Source: Candidatus Micrarchaeota archaeon (lineage in GTDB: Archaea; Micrarchaeota; Micrarchaeia; Micrarchaeales; CABMGC01). Taken from it: 34,501 nt of DNA. The stretch covers positions 1 through 34,501 of the forward strand of contig JASHTX010000020.1 in NCBI GenBank assembly GCA_030040335.1. Reading direction: 5' to 3'. Of the stretch, positions 15,623-34,501 are shown piece by piece. How positions within the stretch are numbered: the stretch's first letter is position 1; each line of letters opens with the position of its first letter. The translations under genes were made by a program, and so were the position numbers. The notes under the pieces were generated by a model. That model searched no databases. It saw only the letters and a list, made by a program, of their open reading frames with translations, and was not told the DNA's origin.

Positions 15623-15988
15623 ATGAAAAAGAGAGGATTCTTGACTATCGTCTCTGCGCTGCTGCCTGTAATTTTAACACTCTATCTCTACTCGGCGATA
15701 ATAGCCCAGACATCTGCTTCTTTGCCGGTCTGTACAAAATCCAGCTCCGGAACAGAGTGCCACAATGCGGCGCCGCCGATATTTAGCCTTACAACCGTGC
15801 TAGGTCTCGTGTATGTAGCTTCCATGTTCTTGTGCCTGATCATTTTCACAGTGAGGAAAGCACTCAGACCGAAGAGCCAGATTCTGCAGACGATCATGCT
15901 CTGCCTGTTCGCTTTCGGGGCTTCAGGGCTCATATGCTCATTTCTGGTTTCATTCGTATTCGAGCATTTCTACTCGATCCCGATATGA
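15623..15988 (+). CDS. hypothetical small membrane protein (about 4 TM helices)
   Basis: 121-aa ORF with four hydrophobic stretches. TATA-like CATATTAAATAAG lies about 25 nt upstream of the ATG. Confidence 0.55.
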   Translation: MKKRGFLTIVSALLPVILTLYLYSAIIAQTSASLPVCTKSSSGTECHNAAPPIFSLTTVLGLVYVASMFLCLIIFTVRKALRPKSQILQTIMLCLFAFGASGLICSFLVSFVFEHFYSIPI

Positions 15989-19659: not shown

Positions 19660-20613
19660 GTGCAAGATGCAAGGAAAGGAGGAAGAGGAGTTCGCAAAGC
19701 CCAATCTGCAATAGAATATCTTTCAATCTACGGCTGGGCGGCGTTGCTGATAGCAATCGTGATGATAGTCCTGTTTGAACTTGGCGTCTTCAATACTCTC
19801 CTTGTAGGTCCGAGGGTGCAGCCAGGCAGCTGCCAGGTGACAAGGCCCAACGGTCCGGGCACCACATATTTCATGAGGATAGTGGGCGCGTGCAACGGTG
19901 CGTTGCCCGAATACGTAATGGTCGCGCATCAGGCAGGAGAGTACGTTGAGGTGGCCAACTCCAGCCATGCATGGAGCCAGCTGAACGTGCTTGGCAACCA
20001 GATAACAGTCGCGGTATGGGTAGACATCTACGGCGCACCATACCACGATGTGGTCGACAAGGAGTATCAGTACGGCATGAAGCTTGATCTTGACAACGAG
20101 CCGAATCCCTGCTTCCCGAGCGACAACACAGGTCTCTGCCTCGAGTGGGACACGTACGACAACTGGGCCGGAGTGGGCCCGAGCGAACCGATACCGGGCG
20201 GCGGCTTTGACAAGTGGATATTCCTGGCAGCGACGATGAATGGAAAGGTCAAAGACTGGTATGCGAATGGAAACTTCATAGGAAGCCAGGACGGCGGCAA
20301 CACGCTGGAATACGTGGATTCCAACCTCTCGATAGGCGCAATTTCAACTGGCTGGACGGGATACGGAGACGCGGAATGGTTCAACGGCACGATAGCAAAC
20401 GTGCAGGTCTACAACACAAGCCTGACTCCAAATGAGATAGAGCAGCTGTATGTAGGCGGGATAGGCTCGCCGCCAATAAGCCTCTCCAACCTGGTCGGAT
20501 GGTGGCCGCTCAACGGCAACGGAAACGACTACAGCGGAAACAACGATAGTGCGCTGACGATAAGCAACGTCTCGTTTACAAACGACTGGACATCGCAATA
20601 CGCCATAACCTGA
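19660..20613 (+). CDS. class III signal peptide (type IV pilin-like) protein with LamG/concanavalin-like domain
   Basis: GTG start. The N-terminus is MQDARKGGRGVRKA|QSAIEYLSIYGWAALLIAIVMIVLF: a charged leader, small residue before Q, E at +5 and a roughly 20-aa hydrophobic helix. The C-terminal half has the LamG signature WFNGTIANVQVYNTSLTPNEIEQLY followed by GWWPLNGNGNDYSGNN. TATA-like AATATAAATATTAA sits at about 19617-19630. Confidence 0.82.
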   Translation: MQDARKGGRGVRKAQSAIEYLSIYGWAALLIAIVMIVLFELGVFNTLLVGPRVQPGSCQVTRPNGPGTTYFMRIVGACNGALPEYVMVAHQAGEYVEVANSSHAWSQLNVLGNQITVAVWVDIYGAPYHDVVDKEYQYGMKLDLDNEPNPCFPSDNTGLCLEWDTYDNWAGVGPSEPIPGGGFDKWIFLAATMNGKVKDWYANGNFIGSQDGGNTLEYVDSNLSIGAISTGWTGYGDAEWFNGTIANVQVYNTSLTPNEIEQLYVGGIGSPPISLSNLVGWWPLNGNGNDYSGNNDSALTISNVSFTNDWTSQYAIT

Positions 20614-21625: not shown

Positions 21626-22051
21626 ATGCAGGGAAGCGAACTGACCGACCACATAATCGTCTGCGGATACGGGCTTGTCGGCGAGAAGATCGTGGACATA
21701 CTCAGGGAACACTCGATAAAGTTCGTGGTTGTGGAACAGAACAAGGAAAAGGTGGATTTCCTCAATGAGAGGGGCGTGACCGCGATTCTTGGAGATGCGA
21801 CATCTTCCAAGGTCCTTCGCGCAGCGGGAATAGAGAATGCGAGGGCAATCGCGGTGGCGATGGACGACGATGCGAAGAACATGTTTACAGTGATAACAGC
21901 GAAAAGCCTCAACGAGAAGATAATAATTGCGACCAGGGCAAATGATGAGTTCCTGAAAGACAAGCTCAAGGAAGCCGGCGCGAGGTTCGTCGCAACCCCG
22001 AACAAGTCGGCAAGCGATGAGCTGTTCAAGGAGCTGGCTAAGGGCACGTAG
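21626..22051 (+). CDS. soluble RCK/TrkA-N domain protein
   Basis: 141 aa. It has a Rossmann GxGxxG in IIVCGYGLVGEKIV and a typical TrkA_N sequence (AILGDATSSKVLRAAGIENARAIAVAMDDD). TATTTATA lies at 21587-21594. Confidence 0.88.
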   Translation: MQGSELTDHIIVCGYGLVGEKIVDILREHSIKFVVVEQNKEKVDFLNERGVTAILGDATSSKVLRAAGIENARAIAVAMDDDAKNMFTVITAKSLNEKIIIATRANDEFLKDKLKEAGARFVATPNKSASDELFKELAKGT

Positions 22052-22056
22052 GTTGT

Positions 22057-22827
22057 TTGATGCAGACGAGCAAAGAAGAGACCTTCAACGTCATGACTCT
22101 CGCGCTCATCATGGCTTTCGCGATCTTCATCATGACGATGCTGATACTGTGGGTCGTGACAAAGAACCTCTACCTGGACTACTACTTTACGCTTGAGTCA
22201 TTCTTCAACGCGCAGAACACGGCAGCATCGGAGGCCCTGGCTAGCGTCGCCTTCTCGAAGAACCTCGGCCAGTTTCTGCTGATACTTTTTGTAGTGGTTG
22301 TGGACAACCTGGGCAGGATATTCATAGTCAGCTTCATAATAGCCGCGGTGATTGACTTCCTCAACTACGCAAATGTCGAGGCGATAATAAACGATCTTCG
22401 GGCTGGCGCCTTGAGGAACCACGTGATACTCTGCGGCTACAACGAAATAGCAGACAAGCTTGCCGCTAAGTTCAAGGAGCAGAACATCAGGTTCATAGTC
22501 GTGGAGCCGAAGGTAGGCAAGGGCATAGAGCTTAACGAGAAGAAGATACTCAACGTCGAAGGGGACTTCACGAAGGCCGAGACGCTGAAGACCGCGGGCA
22601 TAGAAAAGGCAAGGGCCATACTCTTCATATCTTACAGCGACATAGACAACGTGGTGGGCTCGCTGGTCGCGAAGAAGCTGAATCCGAAGATAAAGATACT
22701 CAGCAGGATAAGCGAGGAGAGCGTGAGGAAGAAGGTCTATGGGATAGGAACGTACATGGCGGTGATACCCGAGCACCTTGCGGGCATAGAGATGGGAGAG
22801 TACATGGCAAGGCTTTATGGTGCGTAA
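22057..22827 (+). CDS. membrane protein with C-terminal RCK/TrkA-N domain (channel-like, no K+ signature)
   Basis: 256 aa. Two to three N-terminal hydrophobic helices precede an RCK domain (HVILCGYNEIADKLAAKF...VEGDFTKAETLKTAGIEKARAILF). It starts 5 nt after the upstream gene. Confidence 0.78.
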   Translation: MMQTSKEETFNVMTLALIMAFAIFIMTMLILWVVTKNLYLDYYFTLESFFNAQNTAASEALASVAFSKNLGQFLLILFVVVVDNLGRIFIVSFIIAAVIDFLNYANVEAIINDLRAGALRNHVILCGYNEIADKLAAKFKEQNIRFIVVEPKVGKGIELNEKKILNVEGDFTKAETLKTAGIEKARAILFISYSDIDNVVGSLVAKKLNPKIKILSRISEESVRKKVYGIGTYMAVIPEHLAGIEMGEYMARLYGA

Positions 22828-23553
22828 ATGGCCAGGTTGAGGATAATACACATAATTTCGGTCATGCTGATAATAATGATCTTCATAGTCTCGGTCATAT
22901 TCGTGATCCTTTCAGGCTATACCCCGCTTGATGCGGTCATCTTCAGTTTCATGAACGTTATAGGCGCGACCTTCCCTCCCAACTCGGCGCTGCTCGACGC
23001 GGAGAGTCCGCTAATACTCATGACCGTGGCCCTTGGCATCTTCGCGAACGTGGTGCTGACAATCACCTTCACGACAATATTTTACGAGCTGCTTGGCGGA
23101 ATAGACCTGCGCTACATGCTGATGAAAAGGAAACTCAGCGGCCTGAACAAGCACGCGATAATAACGCCGATAAACGGGATGGGGCTGGAGCTGGCCAACA
23201 AGCTGAAGGCTTTCGGAGTGCCTGTCGTCTTTGTGGACAACAACCCAGCGATGATCAGGAAGGCGATAAGGGAGGGCATGCTAGTGGTGCACGGGGACGC
23301 GGAGAATCCCAACAGCCTCACTGACGCGCACATAAACTACGCAATAGGGCTCTACGCACTCTACGACGATGACGTGAAGAACACCTTCATCACCATAGAG
23401 GCAAAGCGGATGGAAAGAAGCATAAGGGTAATAACAAGGATAAAGAGGCTGGAGGACCTGATAAAGATGGAAAGGGCGGGAGCGAACAGGGTCATGCTGC
23501 CCGAAGCAGCGGTGGGCATAGAGATAGGGGATTTCCTCGTTACCAGCACCTGA
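22828..23553 (+). CDS. membrane protein with C-terminal RCK/TrkA-N domain (channel-like, degenerate pore loop)
   Basis: 241 aa. Its ATG abuts the upstream TAA. The layout is TM, then a re-entrant-like segment (DAVIFSFMNVIGATFPPNS), then TM, then an RCK domain (VVHGDAENPNSLTDAHINYAIGL). Confidence 0.75.
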   Translation: MARLRIIHIISVMLIIMIFIVSVIFVILSGYTPLDAVIFSFMNVIGATFPPNSALLDAESPLILMTVALGIFANVVLTITFTTIFYELLGGIDLRYMLMKRKLSGLNKHAIITPINGMGLELANKLKAFGVPVVFVDNNPAMIRKAIREGMLVVHGDAENPNSLTDAHINYAIGLYALYDDDVKNTFITIEAKRMERSIRVITRIKRLEDLIKMERAGANRVMLPEAAVGIEIGDFLVTST

Positions 23554-23604: not shown

Positions 23605-24855
23605 ATGTTACCATGTGTATACATGGCAGACCAGCCAGCTCCGAACCAGCCAGCCGGAGAACAGCCGATAACGACCAGCATCGACGACCTGGTCAAGTAT
23701 CTGAACGAACACGGCGAGACCGACTCTACCACGCTTTCCGGCTCACTGAGGGTTAGCGAGAGGATCATAGAGACGTGGAGCGACGTCCTCGAGAAGGCGA
23801 AGATCGTAAAGATAAACTACAGACTGGGCAAGATGTTCATATCGCCTATGGTTGCGACCAAGGAGGGCGCAGACGTGGCGAAGAAGACCGTGGAGCTCAA
23901 GAAAGGAGTGGCGGAGATGGAGCTCACCACGCAGATAGTCATGATAAACCAGATCAACACCAAGCTCGACGAGTTCAAGAGATACGTTGCAGGGGCAGAG
24001 GTGGCGTTCAAGTCGAAGGCGGGCCAGCTCAAGGACATGCTCGACGAGCTGGAGAAGGTAAGCCAGCAGATAGACAGCTCGTACACGAAACTGAAGGAGA
24101 AGAAGGACTTCGTGGACCAGCTTGCAGGCAAGCTCGACAAGGAGATGGGAGATCTTCAGGAGAGGGCCACCAAAGGCATGGAGATTTCAGGCAATACCGA
24201 GGCGGACTCGAAGAGGCTTCTCTCCGAAACGAAGATGAACCTCGACAACGCGGACAACAGGATAAGGACGCTGAACGAGGAATTCAACAAGAGTATGGAA
24301 AGCAACAGGAAGACATTCGAGGAGAGCCTGAACGGGATAAGGAACGAGATGCGGTCGCTGAGGGAGATAGTGAGCCAGCAGGAGAAGGAGCAGCACGAGT
24401 ATGCGGCGTTCATAAACTCGTACAAGAGGGAATCAGATTCGATAAAGCGGAACGTCGCGAAGGAGAGGAGCAGGATGATGGACGAGATAACAAGGGCGAG
24501 CGGCGAGGTGGGAAAGATGTACGCCGTGGCCGAGGCGCAGATTCTGGGGGCCAAGAGGACGCTCGAAGACATCAAGAGCCAGTTCGGCGGCTATGCTGAC
24601 CTGAGCGACAAGCTGAACGGGATAAAGAACAACATAGACTCGATAACCAGGCAGAAGGACGAGGTGCAGAAGGAGCTCGAGGAGCTTCAGGAGCAGCTGA
24701 AGGCGCTCTCGGCTCTAGACGACACAAAGGTGGCCCAGAAGAGCATGGTGATGAAAAGGATAACTGACAAGGTCTCCAAGGCGGGCAAGAAGATTGAGGT
24801 GCTGGAGAGAGACACGGACACGGTGAAGAGAAACATAGACGATATGGCGAAGTGA
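23605..24855 (+). CDS. wHTH-like N-terminal domain plus roughly 300-aa coiled-coil protein; first gene of the type IV filament operon
   Basis: 416 aa, or 410 aa if it starts at 23623. The N-terminus SIDDLVKYLNEHGETDSTTLSGSLRVSERIIETWSDVLEKAKIVKINY is wHTH-like. The rest is K/E/D/L-rich heptad-like sequence with no TM helix. It ends 4 nt before the ATPase gene. Confidence 0.8.
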   Translation: MLPCVYMADQPAPNQPAGEQPITTSIDDLVKYLNEHGETDSTTLSGSLRVSERIIETWSDVLEKAKIVKINYRLGKMFISPMVATKEGADVAKKTVELKKGVAEMELTTQIVMINQINTKLDEFKRYVAGAEVAFKSKAGQLKDMLDELEKVSQQIDSSYTKLKEKKDFVDQLAGKLDKEMGDLQERATKGMEISGNTEADSKRLLSETKMNLDNADNRIRTLNEEFNKSMESNRKTFEESLNGIRNEMRSLREIVSQQEKEQHEYAAFINSYKRESDSIKRNVAKERSRMMDEITRASGEVGKMYAVAEAQILGAKRTLEDIKSQFGGYADLSDKLNGIKNNIDSITRQKDEVQKELEELQEQLKALSALDDTKVAQKSMVMKRITDKVSKAGKKIEVLERDTDTVKRNIDDMAK

Positions 24856-24859
24856 GCCG

Positions 24860-26377
24860 ATGGAGGAAACGCAACTAAGCCATAGCGAGAAAGTTTACGG
24901 GTCGTACGAGCTTGACGCGCACGGGCTCAAGGTTGCGATAAGAATAGTGGACAAGGGCACTTTCGTACCCATATACGAGGTCACAGTGCCCGGACTGGGA
25001 GACGCTACAAAAGTGCTCCTGATATCGCTCAGGCAGGAGCTCCTTTCGATGGTACCCATAGACCCTTCGCGGGTCGAGGACAAGGATTACGTTGACGAGC
25101 TGACGCAGAAGTACATCGAGGCCTCGAACATAATCATAGACAGGTACCTGCCGGGCTCGTCAGCAGAGACGAAGCGCGTCCTCATCGCTTACATAGTCAG
25201 CTTCATGCTTGGACTCGGAGACCTGGAAGCACCGCTTGCAGACGACAACCTGGAGGAAGTTGCCGTTAATACTTCAAAGGAACCGATATGGGTCTTCCAC
25301 AAGCAATACGGATGGTGCAAGACGAACGTGACGCTGCTTGACGACAACGTGATATACGACGACGCGCAGCAGATCGGAAGGAGGATAGGGAGGCAGATCT
25401 CCAACCTTTCGCCCCTCATGGACGCAGAGCTTCCGGACGGCTCGCGAGTCAACGCTACGCTCTACCCGATATCACAGAAGGGCAACACGCTGACCATAAG
25501 AAAGTTCGGGAAGAACCCGTGGACCATGCCCGCCATGATCGCAAACGGCACGCTCTCCCCGGAGATCGGAGCGCTAATGTGGCTCGGAGTGGAGAACGAA
25601 GTCAGCTTCCTGATATCAGGAGGCACGGCGAGCGGAAAGACGAGTTTCCTAAATGCGATGAGCGTCTTCATACCTGCAAGCCGCAGGGTGATATCGGTGG
25701 AGCAGGACAGGGAACTGACGCTTCCGAACTTCCTTCACTGGGTGCCTATGCTTACGAGGCAGCCCAACCCAGAGGGCAAGGGAGAGATAACGCTCTACGA
25801 CCTGATGATCAACGCGCTGAGACAGAGGCCAGACGTGATGCTGGTTGGAGAGGTGAGAACCAAGAAAGACGCGGAAACGCTTTTCGAGGCGATACACACT
25901 GGTCACGCGGTGTACGGCACTGTGCACGCTGATAACGCGCAGGACACCATCGTCAGGATGACCAACCCGCCCATCGAGGTGCCGAAGCTCATGCTTAACG
26001 CATTCGGCGGGGTCATAAGCCTTTTCAGGCACAGGAGACTGGGGATAAGAAGAGTCCTTGAGGTAGGGGAGATGCTGAGCAGCGGAGACATAAACGTAGT
26101 CTACAGGTGGGACACGAGGAACGATACGTTCGCGCAGATAGCAGAGATTGCGAGGATGAGCGAGACGATAGCGCTCTTCGGAGGCTACACCAAGGACGAG
26201 CTTGCGAAGAACATAGAGGACAAGCAGATAGTGCTGAACTGGATGGTGAAATACAACGTCACAGGAGTGGACGATGCCGGATATGTCATCTCAAGCTATT
26301 ACAGGAATGCTGAGAAAATCCTCAAGATAGTGGGCGAAAACCAGCCCTACTCGAAGGAGCTCATAGAGAAAGTGTGA
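24860..26377 (+). CDS. type II/IV secretion system ATPase (FlaI/ArlI-PilB-TadA family)
   Basis: 505 aa. Motifs are Walker A SGGTASGKTSF (nt about 25619-25642), Asp-box-like ISVEQDRELTL, Walker B PDVMLVGEVR and His box HTGHAVYGTVHA. Confidence 0.93.
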   Translation: MEETQLSHSEKVYGSYELDAHGLKVAIRIVDKGTFVPIYEVTVPGLGDATKVLLISLRQELLSMVPIDPSRVEDKDYVDELTQKYIEASNIIIDRYLPGSSAETKRVLIAYIVSFMLGLGDLEAPLADDNLEEVAVNTSKEPIWVFHKQYGWCKTNVTLLDDNVIYDDAQQIGRRIGRQISNLSPLMDAELPDGSRVNATLYPISQKGNTLTIRKFGKNPWTMPAMIANGTLSPEIGALMWLGVENEVSFLISGGTASGKTSFLNAMSVFIPASRRVISVEQDRELTLPNFLHWVPMLTRQPNPEGKGEITLYDLMINALRQRPDVMLVGEVRTKKDAETLFEAIHTGHAVYGTVHADNAQDTIVRMTNPPIEVPKLMLNAFGGVISLFRHRRLGIRRVLEVGEMLSSGDINVVYRWDTRNDTFAQIAEIARMSETIALFGGYTKDELAKNIEDKQIVLNWMVKYNVTGVDDAGYVISSYYRNAEKILKIVGENQPYSKELIEKV

Positions 26378-27411
26378 ACGTGGAAGAGGCGCCAGACTAC
26401 GAGAAAATGGTAGATATTGTCGACTCCGTAGACCAGGCATCTGCAGAGACAACAATACCCATAGACGTCTCTGATGTTTTCCAGAACAGGATCGAAGTCA
26501 GGGAACTGAAGTACGAGGATGTAGAGCAAATACTCGAGAAGACAGACACGAGAAGATTTGAGGTGCCGCAGATTCAGGCCAGGCAAAGGATCCAACCCCA
26601 GCAGATGCAGCCAAAGGTACAGAGCACGCAGCCGAAAACCAGAATGCAGCCGCAGTTCCAAACGCCGCAGCCGCAGATGCGGGTCAGGGAAACACCACAG
26701 ATGCAGCCTCAGGCCCAGCCTTCCCAACCGCAGCCGCAGGCCGCGCAACAACAGCCTCGCATCGAGCCGCAGAAGCAGGAGACCGGGGAACAGCAGGTGA
26801 CGCAGCAGCCTCAGGCTAAGGCTCCGCAGATGCAGCCAAGGGCCAGGCCTATACTGCAGACTGCGGGTGAGATATTCGGTTCTGGAGGGGGCGCGAAGAG
26901 CACAGCGGGCGGCACCGGAGGGACCGAGTTGGAGAAAGGAGTGAAAGAGCAGATACCAGAGCACAAGCGCGAAGAAGAAGCAATAATGCAGGTGCAGCCT
27001 CAGGCGAGGGCTCCGCAGATGCAGCCCAGAACCAGAGCAACGAAACAGAATATCGGAAACGAGATGGCTGAAGCTGCCGGCAGGCTGAAGAACATGATGG
27101 GCGCGGCCGGAACAGAGTTCGAGAAGGGAGTGAAAAAGGAGATTGTTGAAACGAAAGTGGAAAAGCAGCAGACGGTGATGCCGAAGCTTTCCCTGCAGGA
27201 TCAGGTCTCGGATCTCGAGAAGATAGAGGAGGGCATCGGAGAAGACGCATTCGACGACGAGCAGATAGAAATAATAAAGCAGGAGATCAATGCGCTCAGC
27301 CTCGCAGCTTCAAAGGAGATGATGAGCAGGCTTAGCTGGGAGCAGAAGCAATTGGCTCTGCTGAGAAACCAAAAGATTAAAGAGATAAGACGTGCGTTGA
27401 ATATGAATTAA
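26374..27411 (+). CDS. Q/P-rich low-complexity repeat protein, no TM helix (hypothetical accessory protein)
   Basis: 345 aa. Its GTG start overlaps the ATPase stop (GTGA). An acidic N-terminus is followed by a Q/P-rich tract with five (P)QMQP-type motifs, an internal roughly 62-aa duplication and a helical acidic C-terminus. Confidence 0.75.
   Translation: MNVEEAPDYEKMVDIVDSVDQASAETTIPIDVSDVFQNRIEVRELKYEDVEQILEKTDTRRFEVPQIQARQRIQPQQMQPKVQSTQPKTRMQPQFQTPQPQMRVRETPQMQPQAQPSQPQPQAAQQQPRIEPQKQETGEQQVTQQPQAKAPQMQPRARPILQTAGEIFGSGGGAKSTAGGTGGTELEKGVKEQIPEHKREEEAIMQVQPQARAPQMQPRTRATKQNIGNEMAEAAGRLKNMMGAAGTEFEKGVKKEIVETKVEKQQTVMPKLSLQDQVSDLEKIEEGIGEDAFDDEQIEIIKQEINALSLAASKEMMSRLSWEQKQLALLRNQKIKEIRRALNMN
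26800..27159 (+). repeat. intragenic tandem duplication (two units of about 62 codons)
   Basis: Unit 1 reads QQPQAKAPQMQPRARP...GGTGGTELEKGVKEQI. Unit 2 reads VQPQARAPQMQPRTRA...MGAAGTEFEKGVKKEI. At the DNA level, cctcaggctaaggctccgcagatgcagcc matches cctcaggcgagggctccgcagatgcagcc. Boundaries are approximate. Confidence 0.7.
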
Positions 27412-27428: not shown

Positions 27429-28589
27429 ATGGGTTTGTTTGGAGGAAGTAAGCAGGCGGCAGACGACGGACAGCAGGGTGATATAATTGGCTTCACAAAG
27501 CCGAAAAAATTCCTGTTTTTCAAGATAAAGTCAAAGCCCATATATGAAAATGCAAAACAAAAGCAGGGGTCGGCACTGGCGCAGCAGCCCTCTCCGCACC
27601 CGCAGAAATCCTCATTCGCAGACAGGATGAAGAACCTGATTCCAAAGCCCAAATCAGCGCAGGCCAGGCAGATGGGCGGCACGACTCAGAGCGCAATGGT
27701 CATGGGACGCGGGAGCCAAGCCCCGGCCGCAGGAACTCAGCTTCCGCCGGGACTCGCAAGGAAGCCCACACAGATGGAGATATACTTCGCGACGGTGGCT
27801 GCGAGGCACAAGGAGCTCGGACCTGCCCTCAGGGCCCAGGGCATAAAGGAAAGCCCGACCGAGTTCGTCAGGAAGATGTTCATGAACGCCATGGTCATAA
27901 CCGTGATGATGACCATCGTGATGGGCATAGCGCTTTACTCGTATGGAGTAAGTGTGATACTTGCGTTGCTCTTCGGGGTGGCGCTCTTCTATGCATTCTT
28001 CAACAAGTTCATACAGTACCCGATAGACAGGAATGCGGTCGTGGGCAAGGAGATAGAGAAGGACATACTCTTCGCTACCAGAGACCTGGTCATAAGCATG
28101 AGATCCGGAATGCCTCTCTTCAACGCGATAACAGCAGTGAGCACAGGCTACGGGGCTGCAAGCCAGGAATTTGCGAAGATCGTCGAGCTGGTGCAGCTTG
28201 GAGCTCCTATAGAGCAGGCGATTGACGATGTCAGCGCTGCAAGCAGGTCCAAGACCTTCAAGAGGGTGATGCTGCAGACAACGGTCAGCCTCAAGGCCGG
28301 AGCCGACGTAGTGGGCGCACTGCAGGAGGTTGTCGACGAGGTCGCACAGGAGAGGGTCATTGAACTGAGGAGATATGGGCAGAGACTAAACGCGCTCGCC
28401 ATGTTCTACATGCTTTTCGGAGTCATATTTCCGAGCATGGGGATAGCTGTTGCGGCAATCCTCACAACATTCATCAGCATATTTACCGTCAACAACAGCA
28501 CGCTTCTTCTCGGTGCCGTATTCATCTTCTTCCTGCAGCTCATATTCCTGAACATGATGAAGTCGTCGAGGCCGACTTTCGCGATGTGA
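27429..28589 (+). CDS. T2SSF-domain platform protein (FlaJ/PilC/TadB-like), first half, with roughly 130-aa disordered N-terminal extension
   Basis: 386 aa. A Q/P/K-rich N-terminus precedes a TM helix. The cytoplasmic T2SSF-type helical domain (ILFATRDLVISMRSGMPLFNAITAVS...LVQLGAPIEQAIDDV...LKAGADVVGALQEV) is followed by C-terminal TM helices. Confidence 0.82.
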   Translation: MGLFGGSKQAADDGQQGDIIGFTKPKKFLFFKIKSKPIYENAKQKQGSALAQQPSPHPQKSSFADRMKNLIPKPKSAQARQMGGTTQSAMVMGRGSQAPAAGTQLPPGLARKPTQMEIYFATVAARHKELGPALRAQGIKESPTEFVRKMFMNAMVITVMMTIVMGIALYSYGVSVILALLFGVALFYAFFNKFIQYPIDRNAVVGKEIEKDILFATRDLVISMRSGMPLFNAITAVSTGYGAASQEFAKIVELVQLGAPIEQAIDDVSAASRSKTFKRVMLQTTVSLKAGADVVGALQEVVDEVAQERVIELRRYGQRLNALAMFYMLFGVIFPSMGIAVAAILTTFISIFTVNNSTLLLGAVFIFFLQLIFLNMMKSSRPTFAM

Positions 28590-28593
28590 TGTT

Positions 28594-29586
28594 ATGAAAA
28601 TAGAGATAGAAAGGCTCATGTCAAGGAACTTTTCAAACTTCCTAAACAGCGAGCTCATGCTTGCCGGCATGAAGATGACACTTGAAAAGCTAATCCAGAT
28701 AGGTTTCGTGGGCGGCATAGCGACGCTTGTCCTGACTCCTATTGTTCTTGTTCTGCTCTTCGGCCTCAGCATCCCGATTTCCTTGGGGATCGGGATTGCT
28801 GCCGCTGCTATCTTCGAGGTTTCGATATACGCTGCGATGGAGTTCAGGATAGAACAGAGGAAGGATTTCATCGAGACGCTGCTTCCAGACTACCTCCAGC
28901 TTGCCGCAGCGAACGTAAGAAGCGGAATAGCGATAGACAAGGCGATGATACTGGCCGCAAGGCCCGAGTTCGGATACTTCTCCGATGACGTGAAGGAGAT
29001 GAACAAGGAGCTTTACAGCGGAGTCACGCTCCAGGCGGCGCTCACCAACCTGGGGAAAAGGTACAGGTCGCTTCAGTTGTCGCACACCGTGAGGATGATG
29101 GTCGAAGGAATACAGTACGGCGGAGGGATGACCGACCTCCTGAACCAGATCTCCAAGGACATAAGGAACCAGCAGATGGTCCAGAAGGAGATATCTGGGC
29201 AGCTATTCATGTACACGATATTCATAGCGTTCGCCTGCCTCCTCGGCGCACCGGTGCTTTATGCCCTGACATCGCAGATGATCGGGGTCACGGATACGGT
29301 CTGGGCTGGGATATTGAAACAGAACCCAGGCGGGCTTCCGACAGTGGGCGTTTCTTTCCTAAGACCTACGCCGCCACAGATAACCATCGACGCCTACCAT
29401 GACTTCGCCATAGCTGCGGTGGTCATGATAACGGGTTTCGGCGCATTCATAGTGAGCGCGATCTCGACAGGCTCTGTCATCAGGGGCATACGGTACGTAC
29501 CCATATTCATAATCATAGGATTGGGCATATTCTTCCTGGTCTCCTCTGCGATAGGCAGCGAGTTCGGAAGCATCGGAGCCGCCTGA
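28594..29586 (+). CDS. T2SSF-domain platform protein (FlaJ/PilC/TadC-like), second half
   Basis: 330 aa. TM helices precede a T2SSF-type domain (LPDYLQLAAANVRSGIAIDKAMILAA...LYSGVTLQAALTNLGKRY...GIQYGGGMTDLLNQIS), followed by three C-terminal TM helices. Confidence 0.82.
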   Translation: MKIEIERLMSRNFSNFLNSELMLAGMKMTLEKLIQIGFVGGIATLVLTPIVLVLLFGLSIPISLGIGIAAAAIFEVSIYAAMEFRIEQRKDFIETLLPDYLQLAAANVRSGIAIDKAMILAARPEFGYFSDDVKEMNKELYSGVTLQAALTNLGKRYRSLQLSHTVRMMVEGIQYGGGMTDLLNQISKDIRNQQMVQKEISGQLFMYTIFIAFACLLGAPVLYALTSQMIGVTDTVWAGILKQNPGGLPTVGVSFLRPTPPQITIDAYHDFAIAAVVMITGFGAFIVSAISTGSVIRGIRYVPIFIIIGLGIFFLVSSAIGSEFGSIGAA

Positions 29587-29587
29587 G

Positions 29588-32251
29588 CTATGTATTTCCA
29601 AGCCCGAGAGCCTGCCACTCGTTCGCAACCGTTGAAATAGTGGATAGCCCAGGCGAATTGTAGTTTCCGGAGAAGTAAGGATAGATGACGTTGTTCGAGA
29701 GCCCATTATTGTTGTAGCCGCTATAGTCAGTTGCGTTACCGTTGAGCGGCCACCAGCCGACCAGGTTTGCGGTTAGAGGCAGCCCGGTTACGCCCTCGGA
29801 ATAGAGCGAATTGAAGGAAGCCTGGGAGAGGACTGAGCCGTAGACCTGTGCGTCGGCGATGTTGCCTGAGAAGTAATAGTTTGTGCCGAACGTCTTGCCT
29901 ATCTCAAAAGTGGTTGCCACATAGGTTATGGTCCCTGTCGTTGCTACGGGCGATCCGACCAGAGCTCCGTTCAGATAGAAGCGGACATTCGCGCCGTCGT
30001 AAGTTACACCAGCCAGATACCAGTTATTCAGAGGAAGCGCGGTGAATGCAGAGGAATCGGCGGTGACCTCGCTTGCACCGTTCCAGAACTGGAAAATAAG
30101 CTCAGTCCTACCACTCGAAAGCATAAGCCTGTACTGGTATGGGCTTGCGCTATCTTTTCCCAATATCTGCTGGTCAGTAGAGCCGCCAAAGGTATTTATC
30201 CAGGCCAGCAGGCTGATGGCGGTGCCGGTTACGTCCAGGGATGTGGTTTGCCCCGGTATGGAGATAAAGGAGGTCTGCCCGTTAAAGTCAGCTGTCTCCA
30301 GATAACCGTTCTGAGGCTCGAGTGGCATGTAACCCAGGTAAAGCTGCTGTATTGTGTTGCTGGCGCACTGCGCGTTAGTGTCGCAGGTAATCCCAGGAAG
30401 CGGAGAGACTGGTGTGGGAACCACATACGAAAATATGCTGTCGCGCGTGTAGTTGATAGGTGGTATGAAGTTCCCGTTTACGAGCGTAACGTTGTTGTTG
30501 TAGCCGCTGTAGTCATGGGCGTTGCCGTTCAGCGGCCACCAGCCTATGAGTCCGTTGTCGCTCAGCGGCAGGCCGGTTATGCCTTCCTGGAATAGCTTCT
30601 GCACCTGTGCCGGCGCTATGGAAGTGTTGTATATCTGCACATCGGAGATGAGACCATTGAAAGGCGCTCCGTTGCCGGGCTGTTCGCCGATAACTATGTT
30701 TGCCGGGCTGCTGTAGCTTATCGCGCTGGGGCCTAGTGTGTTGCCGATCAGGTTTCCATCCACATAGAGCAATAGCTGTTGTGTGCTGCTGTTGTACGTG
30801 CCGGTGAGCATGTGCCACGATCCGATCCCGATTGTGAACCTTGGAGTCCTGTAGGTCTGGCTTGCAGGCCCGCAGATCACGAAGTCGTAGCCATTCGGAG
30901 TAGCACCGTTCTCACTCTCAAGCGCATAGCCGCCGCTCGCGCAGTTGGTAGGCGTCATGCTCGTCGAGGTGACTATCTCACGGGTGGTGTCGCCGCTCAC
31001 CTTGTTGGAGTAGATCCACGCTGAGACTGTGACAGCGGAGGCGGGCGTAAGCACGTTGATCACGTTTACCGCCACCTTGTTGCCAGATACTCCCGGAAAA
31101 CTTCCTACCTGCAGATTGTACGTGCCGAAAGTGAATATGCCGCTCGGGGATTGCGACATCAGGCTGGCCTGGCCCCTCTGCAGATATGATGGCGTGTACG
31201 GGGAGGCGAAGTAGTAGTTGTTGATTACTGCGCTCCTCAGCCCTTCTATGTTTAGCGCATCCATTCCCGGCCCGTAGAGGAGCACGCTTGTGCCGCTCGG
31301 CAGGGTCTTGAGTATTCCGCTTGCATCGGTGTACCTGAGGAACGGAACCGTTGGGAGAGTCGAGGGAGCGTTGTAGGTTATGATTCCTGCAAAGTTATTC
31401 TCGCAGCCTTCGGTATCGAGACCCATGGCATTGAAGGTAACGAGAATTATGTTGCTGGAGTAAGGCTGCGCTGAAAAAGGCGAGGGGATGCTTGTGCACA
31501 ATGCCCCGCTGCTTTGGGAACTCGTCAATGAGAGTGTGGTACCATATGCATAATTCAGTATGTTTCCGGAAACGGCGTAGCCGGTGCCATCTAGGCTGGT
31601 TACGTTTGTAAGGTTGGCGAATTTCAAGGGCCTGAGGATGCCCTGCTGCGCGAAGAAGAGATCTGGCGTGTTGTTGAGCGGAAGGGAAACGTTAACAGGT
31701 ATGTTGTAGCTGTAGTGGTTCCCGCTGGCATTCAGGATTATGCGCTCGATGTAGGAAACCCTTATGTGATAGGGGTCGGTCTGGAATATATTTGGAGTCG
31801 TCTCATTGACGATTACATTCTGGCTCGCGAAGCCGATAAGCGATCCTATAGACTTGTTGTACTGCAGGAACGTCAGATTACCCATCGCGACCGGCGGATA
31901 GCCAGAAGTGTCGTTCGGCACGTTGCCGGTCATCATAAGGTCAGAGAGGTAAAGGCTGGTGTTTGTTATGAAATTGACCTTCCTGAGCGCAGGAACATAC
32001 TCGTAAGTGACCAGAGTTGTCATCGCCTTGCTAAGGCTTCCCTTGGCGAAATTGTTCGCGCTGAGTTTCAGGAGATTTCCGTAGTTGCTGGAGGCGGCAG
32101 AGACAGTCAGAGACTGGACAACGCTGTTGGAGTCTATGTTCAGAAGTGCAAATGCGAAGAGCTCTGCAAGCATCAGCATGAAGAGCAGAAGGGTCAGCAT
32201 GGTCATGAGCTGTCCCTTGCTCGAACCGCCAATAAGTTTCTTTAGCTCCAT
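29588..32251 (-). CDS. giant class III signal peptide (pilin-like) protein with two LamG-type modules
   Basis: 887 aa. The N-terminus is MELKKLIGGSSKG|QLMTMLTLLLFMLMLAELFAFALL. A roughly 340-aa sequon-rich module of unknown fold comes next. Two LamG cores end in ISDVQIYNTSIAPAQVQKLF and NIADAQVYGSVLSQASFNSLY, and each is followed by GWWPLNGNxxDYSGYNNN. Its start overlaps the upstream gene by 10 nt. Confidence 0.85.
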   Translation of the reverse strand: MELKKLIGGSSKGQLMTMLTLLLFMLMLAELFAFALLNIDSNSVVQSLTVSAASSNYGNLLKLSANNFAKGSLSKAMTTLVTYEYVPALRKVNFITNTSLYLSDLMMTGNVPNDTSGYPPVAMGNLTFLQYNKSIGSLIGFASQNVIVNETTPNIFQTDPYHIRVSYIERIILNASGNHYSYNIPVNVSLPLNNTPDLFFAQQGILRPLKFANLTNVTSLDGTGYAVSGNILNYAYGTTLSLTSSQSSGALCTSIPSPFSAQPYSSNIILVTFNAMGLDTEGCENNFAGIITYNAPSTLPTVPFLRYTDASGILKTLPSGTSVLLYGPGMDALNIEGLRSAVINNYYFASPYTPSYLQRGQASLMSQSPSGIFTFGTYNLQVGSFPGVSGNKVAVNVINVLTPASAVTVSAWIYSNKVSGDTTREIVTSTSMTPTNCASGGYALESENGATPNGYDFVICGPASQTYRTPRFTIGIGSWHMLTGTYNSSTQQLLLYVDGNLIGNTLGPSAISYSSPANIVIGEQPGNGAPFNGLISDVQIYNTSIAPAQVQKLFQEGITGLPLSDNGLIGWWPLNGNAHDYSGYNNNVTLVNGNFIPPINYTRDSIFSYVVPTPVSPLPGITCDTNAQCASNTIQQLYLGYMPLEPQNGYLETADFNGQTSFISIPGQTTSLDVTGTAISLLAWINTFGGSTDQQILGKDSASPYQYRLMLSSGRTELIFQFWNGASEVTADSSAFTALPLNNWYLAGVTYDGANVRFYLNGALVGSPVATTGTITYVATTFEIGKTFGTNYYFSGNIADAQVYGSVLSQASFNSLYSEGVTGLPLTANLVGWWPLNGNATDYSGYNNNGLSNNVIYPYFSGNYNSPGLSTISTVANEWQALGLGNT

Positions 32252-34440
32252 GAGTAGACGCCTACCTTGATTGCGTTGGCCACGCCCGTCGTGTAATTAG
32301 TCACAGAAAGAAGGGTGCTGGATTTTGTAACCTCATATGCATTGCTCAGCCCGGGCGGTTTATAGTTCTGCGTGGTGAAACCGACCGGGCCGCTCAAGAA
32401 ACCAGGATTGAAGCCTGCGTAATCATTGGCGTCTCCGGCGAGTGGGTACCACGCCACAAGGCCGTAGCCTTTGAGCGGTACGCCATCGACGCCGCGTAGG
32501 TAAAGCTCGGCCACCTGCGTCCTCAGTATCGGCTTGCTGTATATCTGCACGTTTGCGATATTGCCGGTGAAGTACCTTGTGTCCATGTAGTTGCCTGCTC
32601 CTATTGTCAGGTTTATGTTAGGCGTTGTGGGAAATATGGTGGCAACCGGAGAGTTTACCGTATATGGAGTGTTGCTGTTTATGTACTCGTCGGCATACGT
32701 GCCGTTGAAGACTCCGGTTATCATATACCACCTGTTCTTGTTCAGCACGAGACCGTTGACAGGGATCTGCTGCGTGTGCTGTATGCTGAACTGTATGACG
32801 TTGCTGCTGGTCAGGTAGAAGAACCATCCGCAGTATGTAGAGGGAGAGAGACAGGTGCCGTTGTCTCCGTAATTCAGGAGCTTGGCGCCGCTTGCAGGGT
32901 AAGCGCTGATGTTTATCCAGAAGACCACGCTCACATCTGATGTGTTAAGTGCCTGGATGTTCTTTGCGTCTATGCGCCCCGAAGCCCCGGAGAAGCCTGC
33001 GGTCGTTATCGTCTGTGAGACAGAGTTTGAGACGTAGAGGCTGTAATTCAGCAGCGGATATACGGAGTTGAGCAGGGCGATTCCGCAACCGGTCTGGGAG
33101 TTAAGGTACATAGTTGCCGCTGCGGATAGCAGCGATGCGTAGAGAGGGGAATCACATGTGCCGTACGCGTAGACCTTGTTATTCGCCATTACGTAGAGCC
33201 TGCCATAGGCAAGAGCCATGTACGGCGAGATGTGTACTCTTGGGATCAGAGAGAACCACTGGATCTTGCCTGTCGTGAGGTTCATGGCTGCAAGGCCGTT
33301 GCTCCACAAAGTGTAGACAGATGTGGCAGTCACCACAGGCGTCGCATTTTCCAGTGGTCCGTTATACGAGACCGGCACGATAGTATTCCAGTAGGGAGTT
33401 CCGGAAGGCGACATTGCATTGACCCCTGCGGCCGTCTGGAATACCACGTAATTCTTGAAAGTGGCAACTCCGGTCGGTGCCGACCCGAGCGCAATCGGGA
33501 AGCCGGTAACTACGGTGCCGTTGACATAAATGGCGTTTGCTGATGTTCCGGTGCCCAGGTATGTGACCGTTCCGGAGCCGGCGAGGTTGTTTGTCGGAGG
33601 GTTCCCGGAAGTGTATGTGGTTGAGACGAGCTGCGCGGTAGAGGCACCTGCGCTGAACAGAGTTATAAGCAGCTGGGATGTGGTAAGCTCGATTACGGTG
33701 CCCCTCAACACGGCAAGCGAGATCGGCGCACTGCCGGCTGAGTTCGACCATACCTGGGTTCCGTTGTTTGCATAGTAGGAATACATGCTGCTGCTTGCGC
33801 CGAAGAATATCCTGTTTGCGTAGGCTATTATCGGAGTGGTCACAGGCGTAATGGATTGTATTGACTTTGTGGTCCATATCAGCGCACCGCTCCTTGCGTT
33901 GACTGCGGTGAGGTTTGTCTCGTTTGCGTATATCAGCATTCCTGAGTAGAGTGCGGGCGTAGGGAGGTTCCTGCCGCCGTTTGTACCAACAATCCTGACC
34001 CAGGCGGTCCTGTTTGTCGTTGCGTTTACTGCATAAATCAGCGTGTTGCCGGTGTTGCTACCGGCTCCGAAGTAAAAGTCGCCGTAGTCTGCAACAAGCC
34101 CCATGGTCACTGTGTTGCTGGGGTTGAATACGTAAGAGAGTATCCCTTCTTTAGGGCCCACCAGGTTGCTGCTGTTGGTCTGCGGACCGCCTAGAAACTG
34201 CGGGGATGTCTCATTGGCGCCGAGATACTGGGTTGCTATGGCGCCTGCTAGCGCGCTGCTGTTTTGCAGCGACACAACACTCGTGGAAGAAAGGTATGAA
34301 AGCAGGTCCTGGACGTTGGAGTAATGGATTGCGTAAGGGGTCTGGGCATAGTACTGGAAGTAGAGGAGTATGGAGATGCATAACACCACTATGGCCAGAG
34401 CGAAGACGGAATCCAGCGTAAAGATTATTCCCTTCATCAA
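32242..34440 (-). CDS. class III signal peptide (pilin-like) protein with PQQ-like beta-propeller and C-terminal LamG domain
   Basis: 732 aa. The start is TTG at 34440 or, more likely, ATG at 34437: MKG|IIFTLDSVFALAIVVLCISILLYF. Repeated propeller-blade motifs are LIYAVNATTNRTAWV, LTAVNARSGALIWTT, YSYYANNGTQVWSN, VNAMSPSGTPYWNT and LAAMNLTTGKIQWFS. The LamG tail is FTGNIANVQIYSKPILRTQVAELY followed by LVAWYPLAGDANDYAG. Confidence 0.85.
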   Translation of the reverse strand: MMKGIIFTLDSVFALAIVVLCISILLYFQYYAQTPYAIHYSNVQDLLSYLSSTSVVSLQNSSALAGAIATQYLGANETSPQFLGGPQTNSSNLVGPKEGILSYVFNPSNTVTMGLVADYGDFYFGAGSNTGNTLIYAVNATTNRTAWVRIVGTNGGRNLPTPALYSGMLIYANETNLTAVNARSGALIWTTKSIQSITPVTTPIIAYANRIFFGASSSMYSYYANNGTQVWSNSAGSAPISLAVLRGTVIELTTSQLLITLFSAGASTAQLVSTTYTSGNPPTNNLAGSGTVTYLGTGTSANAIYVNGTVVTGFPIALGSAPTGVATFKNYVVFQTAAGVNAMSPSGTPYWNTIVPVSYNGPLENATPVVTATSVYTLWSNGLAAMNLTTGKIQWFSLIPRVHISPYMALAYGRLYVMANNKVYAYGTCDSPLYASLLSAAATMYLNSQTGCGIALLNSVYPLLNYSLYVSNSVSQTITTAGFSGASGRIDAKNIQALNTSDVSVVFWINISAYPASGAKLLNYGDNGTCLSPSTYCGWFFYLTSSNVIQFSIQHTQQIPVNGLVLNKNRWYMITGVFNGTYADEYINSNTPYTVNSPVATIFPTTPNINLTIGAGNYMDTRYFTGNIANVQIYSKPILRTQVAELYLRGVDGVPLKGYGLVAWYPLAGDANDYAGFNPGFLSGPVGFTTQNYKPPGLSNAYEVTKSSTLLSVTNYTTGVANAIKVGVYSWS

Positions 34441-34501
34441 GACACACCGAAACTTTTGTTCGTCCAGACTATTATCTGCATCTTGGCTGGCACACCGTTC
34501 A
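34437..34501 (-). CDS. possible 3' end of a further upstream gene of the pilin-like operon (truncated by the window edge)
   Basis: The minus-strand frame reads ...NGVPAKMQIIVWTNKSFGVS* with TGA at 34439-34437, sharing one base with the ATG at 34437 (TGATG). Only 21 codons are visible, so this is weak. Confidence 0.3.
   Translation of the reverse strand, partial: NGVPAKMQIIVWTNKSFGVS

Follow-up and report, generated by a model that had tools for sequence, protein, structure and literature searches.

Modular pilins are widespread in bacteria. The combination of a pilin with PF13385 is their commonest architecture (229 proteins), and one pilin with PQQ repeats was also recorded in the bacterial survey (PMC8179133). 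Streptococcus sanguinis PilC is a lectin modular pilin that has been crystallised and whose pilin moiety is unusually short; it is stabilised by PilA and was placed in a tip complex (PMC9934059). In the archaeal clade 1 pilus loci, an ATPase and two TadC are encoded together with several minor pilins and with large proteins of the DUF2341 (LamG-like) type (Makarova, Koonin and Albers 2016, PMC4858521). These large proteins were proposed as PilY-like tip adhesins (Methanococci, Methanobacteria and Thermococci; PMC4858521). The locus MIA14_0170-0177 of the micrarchaeon Mia14, which encodes an ATPase, two TadC and a secreted component, was assigned to the clade 1 group (Golyshina et al., PMC5498576). 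LamG proteins were linked to the pilus loci of Mia14, and one A24 prepilin peptidase was reported from it (PMC5498576). The bindosome-type sugar-binding proteins of Sulfolobus are large non-pilin globular proteins with a class III signal, and their surface localisation needs a dedicated PilB/PilC-like pair (PMC4371748). Here we analysed a contig of 34,501 nucleotides (nt) from a Candidatus Micrarchaeota archaeon (JASHTX010000020.1, assembly GCA_030040335.1), called the window below and identical with the entire contig. The subject is one of its genes, the target, which encodes a protein of 731 amino acids (aa) with a prepilin-like N-terminus, a beta-propeller and a LamG domain. We consider this protein reasonably likely to be a modular, pilin-like minor subunit of the Micrarchaeota type IV pilus system, probably in its tip/priming complex.

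The coding sequence of the target was located on the minus strand at 32242..34437 and comprises 731 codons and the stop. A mechanical call gave a 732-codon open reading frame (ORF) at 32242..34440 on the same strand, opening at TTG 34440. The true start is ATG 34437 instead, because the homologues open with M-K and the upstream TGA stop overlaps this ATG (TGATG). Among 43 full-length homologues, the M-K opening was found in almost all. The protein begins with MKGIIFTLDSVFALAIVV, and a longer stretch of the same start reads MKGIIFTLDSVFALAIVVLCISILLYF. The upstream gene (34437..34501, minus strand), a homologue of the 179-aa protein p179, is truncated by the contig end; only its C-terminus is encoded, in the final 64 nt of the window, and finishes with NGVPAKMQIIVWTNKSFGVS before the stop. 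At the other end, the target stop overlaps the ATG of a downstream gene for an 887-aa protein by 10 nt. Through these stop/start overlaps, the target gene is translationally coupled to both of its neighbours.

The preliminary description of this DNA had proposed a pilin N-terminus fused to a PQQ-like propeller plus a LamG domain. The propeller and the LamG domain were both recovered by Pfam and by an AlphaFold2 model, and the propeller also by Foldseek. Pfam placed PQQ_2 in the target with an E-value of 3e-11 and Laminin_G_3 with an E-value of 2e-15; their bit scores were 43.8 and 57.6, both above the cut-off of 27.6, and the Laminin_G_3 match covered profile positions 2-151 of 151. The model was built from a 43-sequence alignment and reached a predicted local distance difference test (pLDDT) score of 87.6 and a predicted template modelling (pTM) score of 0.86. 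The observation in the preliminary description was thereby confirmed, and its interpretation was partly supported, as discussed below.

The protein starts with the three-residue leader M-K-G (34429..34437; all target features lie on the minus strand), where a putative prepilin-peptidase site would be cleaved after residue 3. A hydrophobic helix follows at residues 4-27 (IIFTLDSVFALAIVVLCISILLYF; 34357..34428) and represents the putative alpha-1N assembly helix; it was modelled as a helix at residues 8-26 with a low-confidence break at 26-37. The stalk, residues 28-99 (34141..34356), consists of this low-confidence linker, short helices at 39-51 and 62-72, and coil. The eight-bladed PQQ/BamB-like beta-propeller occupies residues ~100-427 (33157..34140) and was supported by Pfam, the model, Foldseek and the profile search. 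It was modelled at about 100-425. A two-helix linker at residues 428-462 (33052..33156) carries Cys428 and Cys451, which are nearly invariant. The LamG/concanavalin-A-like jelly roll (Laminin_G_3) covers residues ~463-650 (32488..33051) according to Pfam and the model. The C-terminal beta-strand region, residues 651-731 (32245..32487), contains a conserved GLVAWYPLxGDxNDYAG motif and the invariant Trp730. The modelled order after the propeller was two helices at 436-459, jelly-roll strands at 465-650 and more strands up to residue 730.

The modelled propeller displayed 30 strands of at least 3 residues. Since these exceed the 28 strands that seven blades permit, eight blades were assigned, and motif-bearing hairpins occurred eight times. 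The check recommended in the preliminary description, a structure prediction followed by Foldseek, thus returned a propeller and a blade count of eight. The repeat pattern on which that description had based its propeller held only in part. A strict regular expression gave one match and a relaxed one two, but five A-x-N/D-x-x-(S/T)-G/N-x-x-x-W-like hairpins could be recognised by eye near residues 135, 177, 221, 341 and 384.

The best Foldseek matches of the target model were the eight-bladed BamB (E-value 7e-17, TM score 0.75, about 360 columns), tetrathionate hydrolase and YxaL. A family profile was compared with all PDB sequences, and its propeller matches were BamB and archaeal cell-surface PQQ-like propellers, with E-values down to 7e-28. 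These comparisons are reported for the top 50 Foldseek matches and the best 60 of 96 PDB profile matches. The identity of the propeller to its best matches (BamB, YxaL and the archaeal cell-surface propellers) was 13-18%. They share the eight-bladed PQQ_2-type fold with the target; BamB belongs to the bacterial BAM complex as an outer-membrane lipoprotein, and the likeness concerns the scaffold fold only. The jelly-roll matches of the family profile were an S-layer (surface-layer) LamG domain, an arabinanase carbohydrate-binding module, pentraxins and the botulinum Hc lectin-like domain. The NCBIfam assignment 'TafC fimbrial protein' was rejected, as it reflects only the shared LamG of a Tat-dependent haloarchaeal fimbria subunit.

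The preliminary description had also pointed to numerous N-x-S/T sequons. The target indeed contains 18 of them, but composition-preserving shuffles contained 12.1 +/- 3.0 and 86 of 2000 shuffles reached 18, so that the enrichment is modest. Sequon numbers among the homologues ranged from 9 to 21. Charged residues made up only 6.4% in the family, and Cys428 and Cys451 are likely to form a disulfide. Low charge, the Cys pair and the enriched sequons would fit an extracellular protein, and low charge and the Cys pair would also fit an acidophile.

The N-terminus of the family was read as a class III-like signal. Across the 43 homologues, with identity down to 27%, it follows M-[KR]-[G21/A18/L4]-[IVF]-[VI]-F-T-[LM]-D-[AS]-x-F-[AS]-L, the numbers being counts of homologues. 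Position 2 of the leader was Lys or Arg in 43/43, position 3 was Gly in 21, Ala in 18 and Leu in 4, and F6, T7, D9 and F12 were invariant. The target itself displays a short, positively charged leader with Gly at -1, where Gly or Ala is expected, and after the putative cleavage site about 20 hydrophobic residues that form the conserved helix. The frequency of the top residue at positions 1-26 was 0.74, the highest of the protein, and was 0.43-0.60 in the other regions (0.52 in the propeller and 0.43 in the LamG domain, which is the most variable domain of the family). The best-conserved 25-residue window of the family begins at residue 1. Conservation of this kind would be expected if the segment is a pilin assembly helix, but not if it is a generic membrane anchor. 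The p179 family profile aligned in register with the target family from residue 1 over 48 columns (hhalign E-value 5.7e-5, probability 66%). The preliminary description had likened the leader both to archaeal class III signals and to the bacterial G/FTLIE prepilin consensus (here and below, a slash within an N-terminal motif marks the putative cleavage site). The first likeness stood, but the second proved superficial, the acidic residue being Asp at +6 and not Glu at +5.

The family comprises about 100 loci, almost all of them in metagenome-assembled genomes of Micrarchaeota (DPANN). We studied 84 loci, which were retrieved by looking up distant homologues and by scanning species-representative genomes, and nearly all of these were labelled Micrarchaeota, Micrarchaeia or Micrarchaeaceae. 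The databases name the family 'PQQ-binding-like beta-propeller repeat protein' or 'BamB'. A phmmer search with the first 60 residues against 1.84 billion representatives returned 59 proteins, which were family members or domain variants as judged by eight Pfam scans and by their lengths. Among these 59 proteins, neither an unrelated cargo family nor a match clearly outside the target family was seen.

The C-terminal modules differed among family members. The propeller was followed by one LamG domain in proteins of ~720 aa and by two in proteins of ~920 aa. One variant of 594 aa (P0132) has two LamG domains and no propeller, another of 1402 aa (P0130) combines the propeller and a LamG domain with an added lactonase/YncE-like second propeller, and a third (P0163) carries a Gly-rich insertion. 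DUF2341 gave a weak match in one family variant only. A constant N-terminal module is therefore combined with varying C-terminal modules. If the N-terminus acts as its sequence suggests, a constant N-terminus that bears different adhesive cargo corresponds exactly to the 'modular pilin' design.

The gene order around the target was conserved. It runs CBS protein (bracketed in our scheme), p160, a ~1100-aa LamG protein, p179, the target and a ~887-aa LamG protein, and then a convergent operon of TadC, TadC, a Q/P-rich protein, the secretion ATPase and a coiled-coil protein. The target is thus the fourth gene of a five-protein cassette. The p179 gene was directly upstream of the target in 71/77 loci, and the ATPase and both TadC genes were downstream in 50 of the 56 loci whose downstream flank was at least 9 kb long. 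The order relative to the machinery was kept down to 26-27% identity, and the window displays the same arrangement.

The target is therefore encoded with a type IV filament ATPase (T2SSE) and platform proteins (two T2SSF) in convergent orientation. The downstream 887-aa cassette gene is located at 29588..32251 on the minus strand; its product has the class III-like N-terminus SSKG/QLMTM and two LamG domains. The convergent operon lies on the plus strand, with the type IV pilus/archaellum-type secretion ATPase at 24860..26377 and the two TadC/PilC-type platform genes at 27429-28589 and 28594-29586. A 416-aa coiled-coil protein (23605..24855, plus strand) precedes the ATPase, and a 345-aa Q/P-rich repetitive protein (26374..27411, plus strand) is encoded between the ATPase and the TadC genes. 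Both are conserved and have no family assignment. The coiled-coil 416-aa and the Gln/Pro-rich 345-aa proteins flank the ATPase in about 50 loci.

Class III-like N-termini were found on all five cassette proteins. Their motifs were [KR][LAG]/QSSFELL in p160, [KR][LAGS]/QIALE[FY] in the ~1100-aa LamG protein, MK[ALG]/QFWSFDVIF in p179, MK[GAL]/[IV][VI]FT[LM]D in the target and [KR][GA]/[QILF]LMT in the 887-aa LamG protein. Gln at +1 occurred in p160, the ~1100-aa LamG protein and p179. An acidic residue, usually Glu, was at +5 in p160 and the ~1100-aa LamG protein, and p179 displayed Asp at +6 like the target. EppA-type archaeal pilins are characterised by Gln at +1 together with Glu at +5 (PMC4371748).

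Leu at -1 was frequent in the cassette (K-L-Q in p160, the ~1100-aa LamG protein and p179), unlike the usual Gly/Ala rule. Because it recurs in several cassette proteins, it appears to be a lineage trait and not evidence against processing, and it may indicate an unusual prepilin-peptidase specificity in Micrarchaeota. The p179 family (179 aa; L001:9462-10001) is annotated only as 'hypothetical'. Its model, with a pLDDT of 87, consists of a 56-residue N-terminal helix (residues 2-57) and an alpha/beta head with a four-stranded sheet.

Compared with the bacterial modular pilins, the target shows the same general plan. In Streptococcus sanguinis, PilC, with a lectin module, and PilB, with a vWA module, likewise join a class III-type helix and a short linker to bulky adhesive modules (PMC8179133, PMC9934059). 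The bacterial proteins also have an unusually short pilin moiety, their location in a tip complex was predicted or shown, and their genes are encoded with those of small minor pilins, which in bacteria stabilise the modular pilin. In contrast, the target is archaeal, has no IPR012902/PF04021 match, and carries a 3-residue leader and Asp +6 in place of Glu +5. Its cargo is an eight-bladed propeller plus LamG, its pilin part is seemingly the helix alone and, unlike S. sanguinis PilC, its family is known from sequence only. The target would work like modular pilins or pilus adhesins, but its N-terminus fails the sequence-model tests for pilins of bacteria and of archaea alike.

By gene content, the target locus resembles the archaeal clade 1 loci, with an ATPase, two TadC, minor pilins with class III signals and large proteins with concanavalin-like domains. 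The Mia14 locus MIA14_0170-0177 looks orthologous to it. The target differs from the clade 1 adhesins in having Laminin_G_3 and not DUF2341, and no propeller-bearing member was described there (PMC4858521). The preliminary description had presented the direct fusion of an adhesive module to a pilin helix as a novelty, which was overstated, as this 'modular pilin' design is already published (PMC8179133). The family would be a phylum-wide archaeal addition to the modular pilins and pilus-associated adhesins, with a propeller+LamG cargo architecture undescribed in archaea.

From these comparisons a model of assembly and function can be drawn. The target would be inserted in the membrane, where a single A24 prepilin peptidase would remove M-K-G. 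The ATPase/TadC platform would then extract the target helix from the membrane, and this helix would pack with the alpha-1 helices of p160, the ~1100-aa LamG protein, p179 and the 887-aa LamG protein. The five cassette proteins would form a priming or tip complex, beneath which a major pilin encoded elsewhere would polymerise. The propeller and LamG domain, being bulky, could be accommodated only distally, outside the S-layer, and might bind glycans or proteins of a host (Thermoplasmatales-type) surface or of a biofilm matrix. The variable LamG domain may set the ligand specificity, and the propeller may serve as a non-enzymatic scaffold or a second binding surface.

Several results weigh against this reading of the target as a pilus subunit. 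Pfam and NCBIfam scans of its N-terminal 60 residues returned no pilin or class III model (PF04021, PF07790 and IPR012902-type models were considered) and no Pfam match at E <= 10. The sole match to an N-terminal model was that of the neighbouring ~1100-aa LamG protein to PF04021, which was sub-threshold (E-value 0.03). The acidic residue of the target helix is Asp at +6 (residue 9), without Glu at +5, and Leu occupied the putative -1 position in 4 of the 43 homologues. The modelled helix has ~19 residues and ends in the low-confidence break, no pilin head could be recognised, and an extended alpha-1 helix of ~50 residues packed on a beta-sheet head was absent from the model. The p179 model had no significant Foldseek match to solved pilins or other PDB entries, its weak matches being spurious ribosomal uS3 chains; the pilin nature of p179 is hence proposed from topology.

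The remaining points of this kind concern the gene neighbourhood. The machinery was not nearby in 6 of the 56 loci. No A24 prepilin peptidase (GxGD with at least 4-5 transmembrane segments) and no major pilin were found in the window or in the flanks (+/-10 kb) of the 84 loci. When the window was searched for a small major pilin, only a doubtful 121-aa ORF at 15623-15988 on the plus strand emerged. Three A24 candidates were rejected; one was a TadC, and the other two were copies of a single unrelated multi-pass membrane protein. It should be considered that Glu at +5 is not universal among archaeal pilins and that PibD accepts 3-residue leaders.

Two other readings were weighed that retain a surface position for the target. 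In a bindosome-like or pseudopilus display, the peptidase and the ATPase/TadC machinery would be used, but the five proteins alone would form a short surface-embedded structure, like that suggested for the Sulfolobus sugar-binding proteins, instead of a long pilus tip. The pilin part of the target appears cut to the helix alone, as in the bindosome subunits that 'hijacked' the machinery (PMC4371748). A major pilin gene is missing from the cassette and the window, and big cargo is present on four of the five cassette members, or three if only the large ones are counted. We regard such a display as possible but rather unlikely, as thin pili-like filaments were seen on a cultivated micrarchaeon (PMC11329633) and the major pilins of archaeal clade 1 systems are usually encoded by small genes that stand alone at other sites (PMC4858521). 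Moreover, p160 and p179 resemble ordinary small pilins. The target cassette also differs from the bindosome system in containing small pilin-like proteins, and the bindosome cargo is a solute-binding protein for uptake, whereas that of the target is a propeller with a lectin-like domain.

An uncleaved signal anchor would instead make the target a type II membrane-tethered surface glycoprotein that is independent of pili, and its neighbourhood would reflect only the co-regulation of surface functions. The class III signal without support from a hidden Markov model, the homologues with Leu at position 3, the short helix followed by a flexible linker and the six loci without adjacent machinery would all agree with an anchor. 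However, anchors are normally poorly conserved, whereas no part of this family is better conserved than the N-terminus, whose helix contains an invariant Asp. The N-terminus also aligns in register with the neighbouring pilin-like p179, Leu at -1 is common in the neighbouring Gln+1 (EppA-type) N-termini as well, and the order relative to the machinery persists in the most distant homologues. An anchor is accordingly judged improbable, and the prepilin-type N-terminus claimed in the preliminary description gains support from the top conservation within the family, the invariant Asp, the p179 alignment, the cassette and the machinery.

The propeller itself gave rise to two further explanations. 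The target might be a surface enzyme of acidic, sulfur-rich habitats, either a pyrroloquinoline quinone (PQQ)-dependent dehydrogenase or a tetrathionate-hydrolase-like propeller, with LamG as a carbohydrate-binding module. Tetrathionate hydrolase and quinoprotein dehydrogenases were among the Foldseek and profile matches, and the public family name 'PQQ-binding-like beta-propeller repeat protein' points the same way. The best matches were nevertheless the non-enzymatic BamB, YxaL and archaeal cell-surface propellers, the dehydrogenases matching more weakly than BamB. The 594-aa variant without a propeller, the incomplete PQQ biosynthesis reported for the micrarchaeon Mia14 (PMC5498576) and a context formed by a pilus cassette with no redox or sulfur cluster also argue against an enzyme, which we consider very improbable.

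The preliminary description had suggested an archaeal analogue of PilY1. The PilY1/PilC proteins of bacterial type IVa pili are, like the target, large beta-propeller proteins associated with a minor-pilin set, and adhesion at the tip was proposed for them. PilY1 propellers are seven-bladed and have a calcium site. They belong to another family (IPR008707/PF05567), and no sequence or profile similarity to the target was found. For true but divergent homology, the shared theme of a beta-propeller tied to a type IV pilus was the sole support, apart from the PF13385 modules carried by some PilY1 proteins (PMC8179133 Dataset S2). The target had no PF05567/IPR008707 match at E <= 1, and no PilY1 chain occurred among the best 60 of 96 PDB profile matches or the top 50 Foldseek matches. 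Its propeller is eight-bladed, PQQ_2-type and BamB-like. In addition, the target has its own pilin-type N-terminus, whereas PilY1 is not a pilin and docks on a minor-pilin complex. Such homology therefore seems extremely unlikely.

If the target is a pilus-displayed modular adhesin, it bears on how DPANN archaea recognise their hosts and stay attached to them. Micrarchaeota are so far without a known adhesin, and the family would be a good candidate for their host-attachment apparatus. The current database labels hide this likely role. Its recognition would provide targets in three cultivated systems, Ca. Micrarchaeum harzensis, Ca. Mancarchaeum acidiphilum and ARM-1. It would also carry over to archaea the 'modular pilin' concept, for which only bacteria have been surveyed to date. 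Conceptually this is a modest advance, since both the principle of the design and the idea of PilY-like proteins in archaeal pilus loci have already been published. More tentatively, the cassette may be a DPANN-specific pilus tip made of a five-helix bundle, an eight-bladed propeller and at least 5 LamG domains, which would serve Micrarchaeota as a host-recognition device. The fast-evolving LamG domains would then choose among Thermoplasmatales or Sulfolobales host glycans, and retraction or anchoring would make the cell-cell contact needed for symbiosis.

Some other genes of the window were recorded. The contig carries the archaeal markers eIF2-gamma, ribosomal protein S6e, Cdc48 and topoisomerase VI-B. 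The doubtful 121-aa ORF starts with MKKRG/FLTIVSALLPVIL, which is class III-like, and has no family match; it may encode a small pilin-like or membrane protein. Three consecutive TrkA_N (RCK-type) genes directly precede the machinery operon (21626-23553, plus strand), as they also do in the L001 locus, and they may be nucleotide-sensing regulators of the pilus system. A 789-aa ORF without a Pfam match is located at 1592-3961 on the plus strand.

The window further encodes a stand-alone 317-aa protein (19660..20613, plus strand) with the EppA-type signal RKA/QSAIEYL (Gln +1, Glu +5) and one LamG domain. Encoded about 4 kb from the machinery operon, it represents the pilin+LamG architecture in minimal form. 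In this protein, the target and the 887-aa protein, each LamG domain is followed by the motif [GN]L[IV][GA]W[WY]PLxG[DN]xxDY[SA]G, which was located at residue 659 of the target, residues 567 and 829 of the 887-aa protein and residue 277 of the 317-aa protein. In Laminin_G_3 domains, this motif usually makes up the leading strand. Since the last copy in each of the three proteins sits orphaned at the C-terminus, the LamG domain may be circularly permuted, or the C-terminal strand may be donated to a neighbouring subunit.

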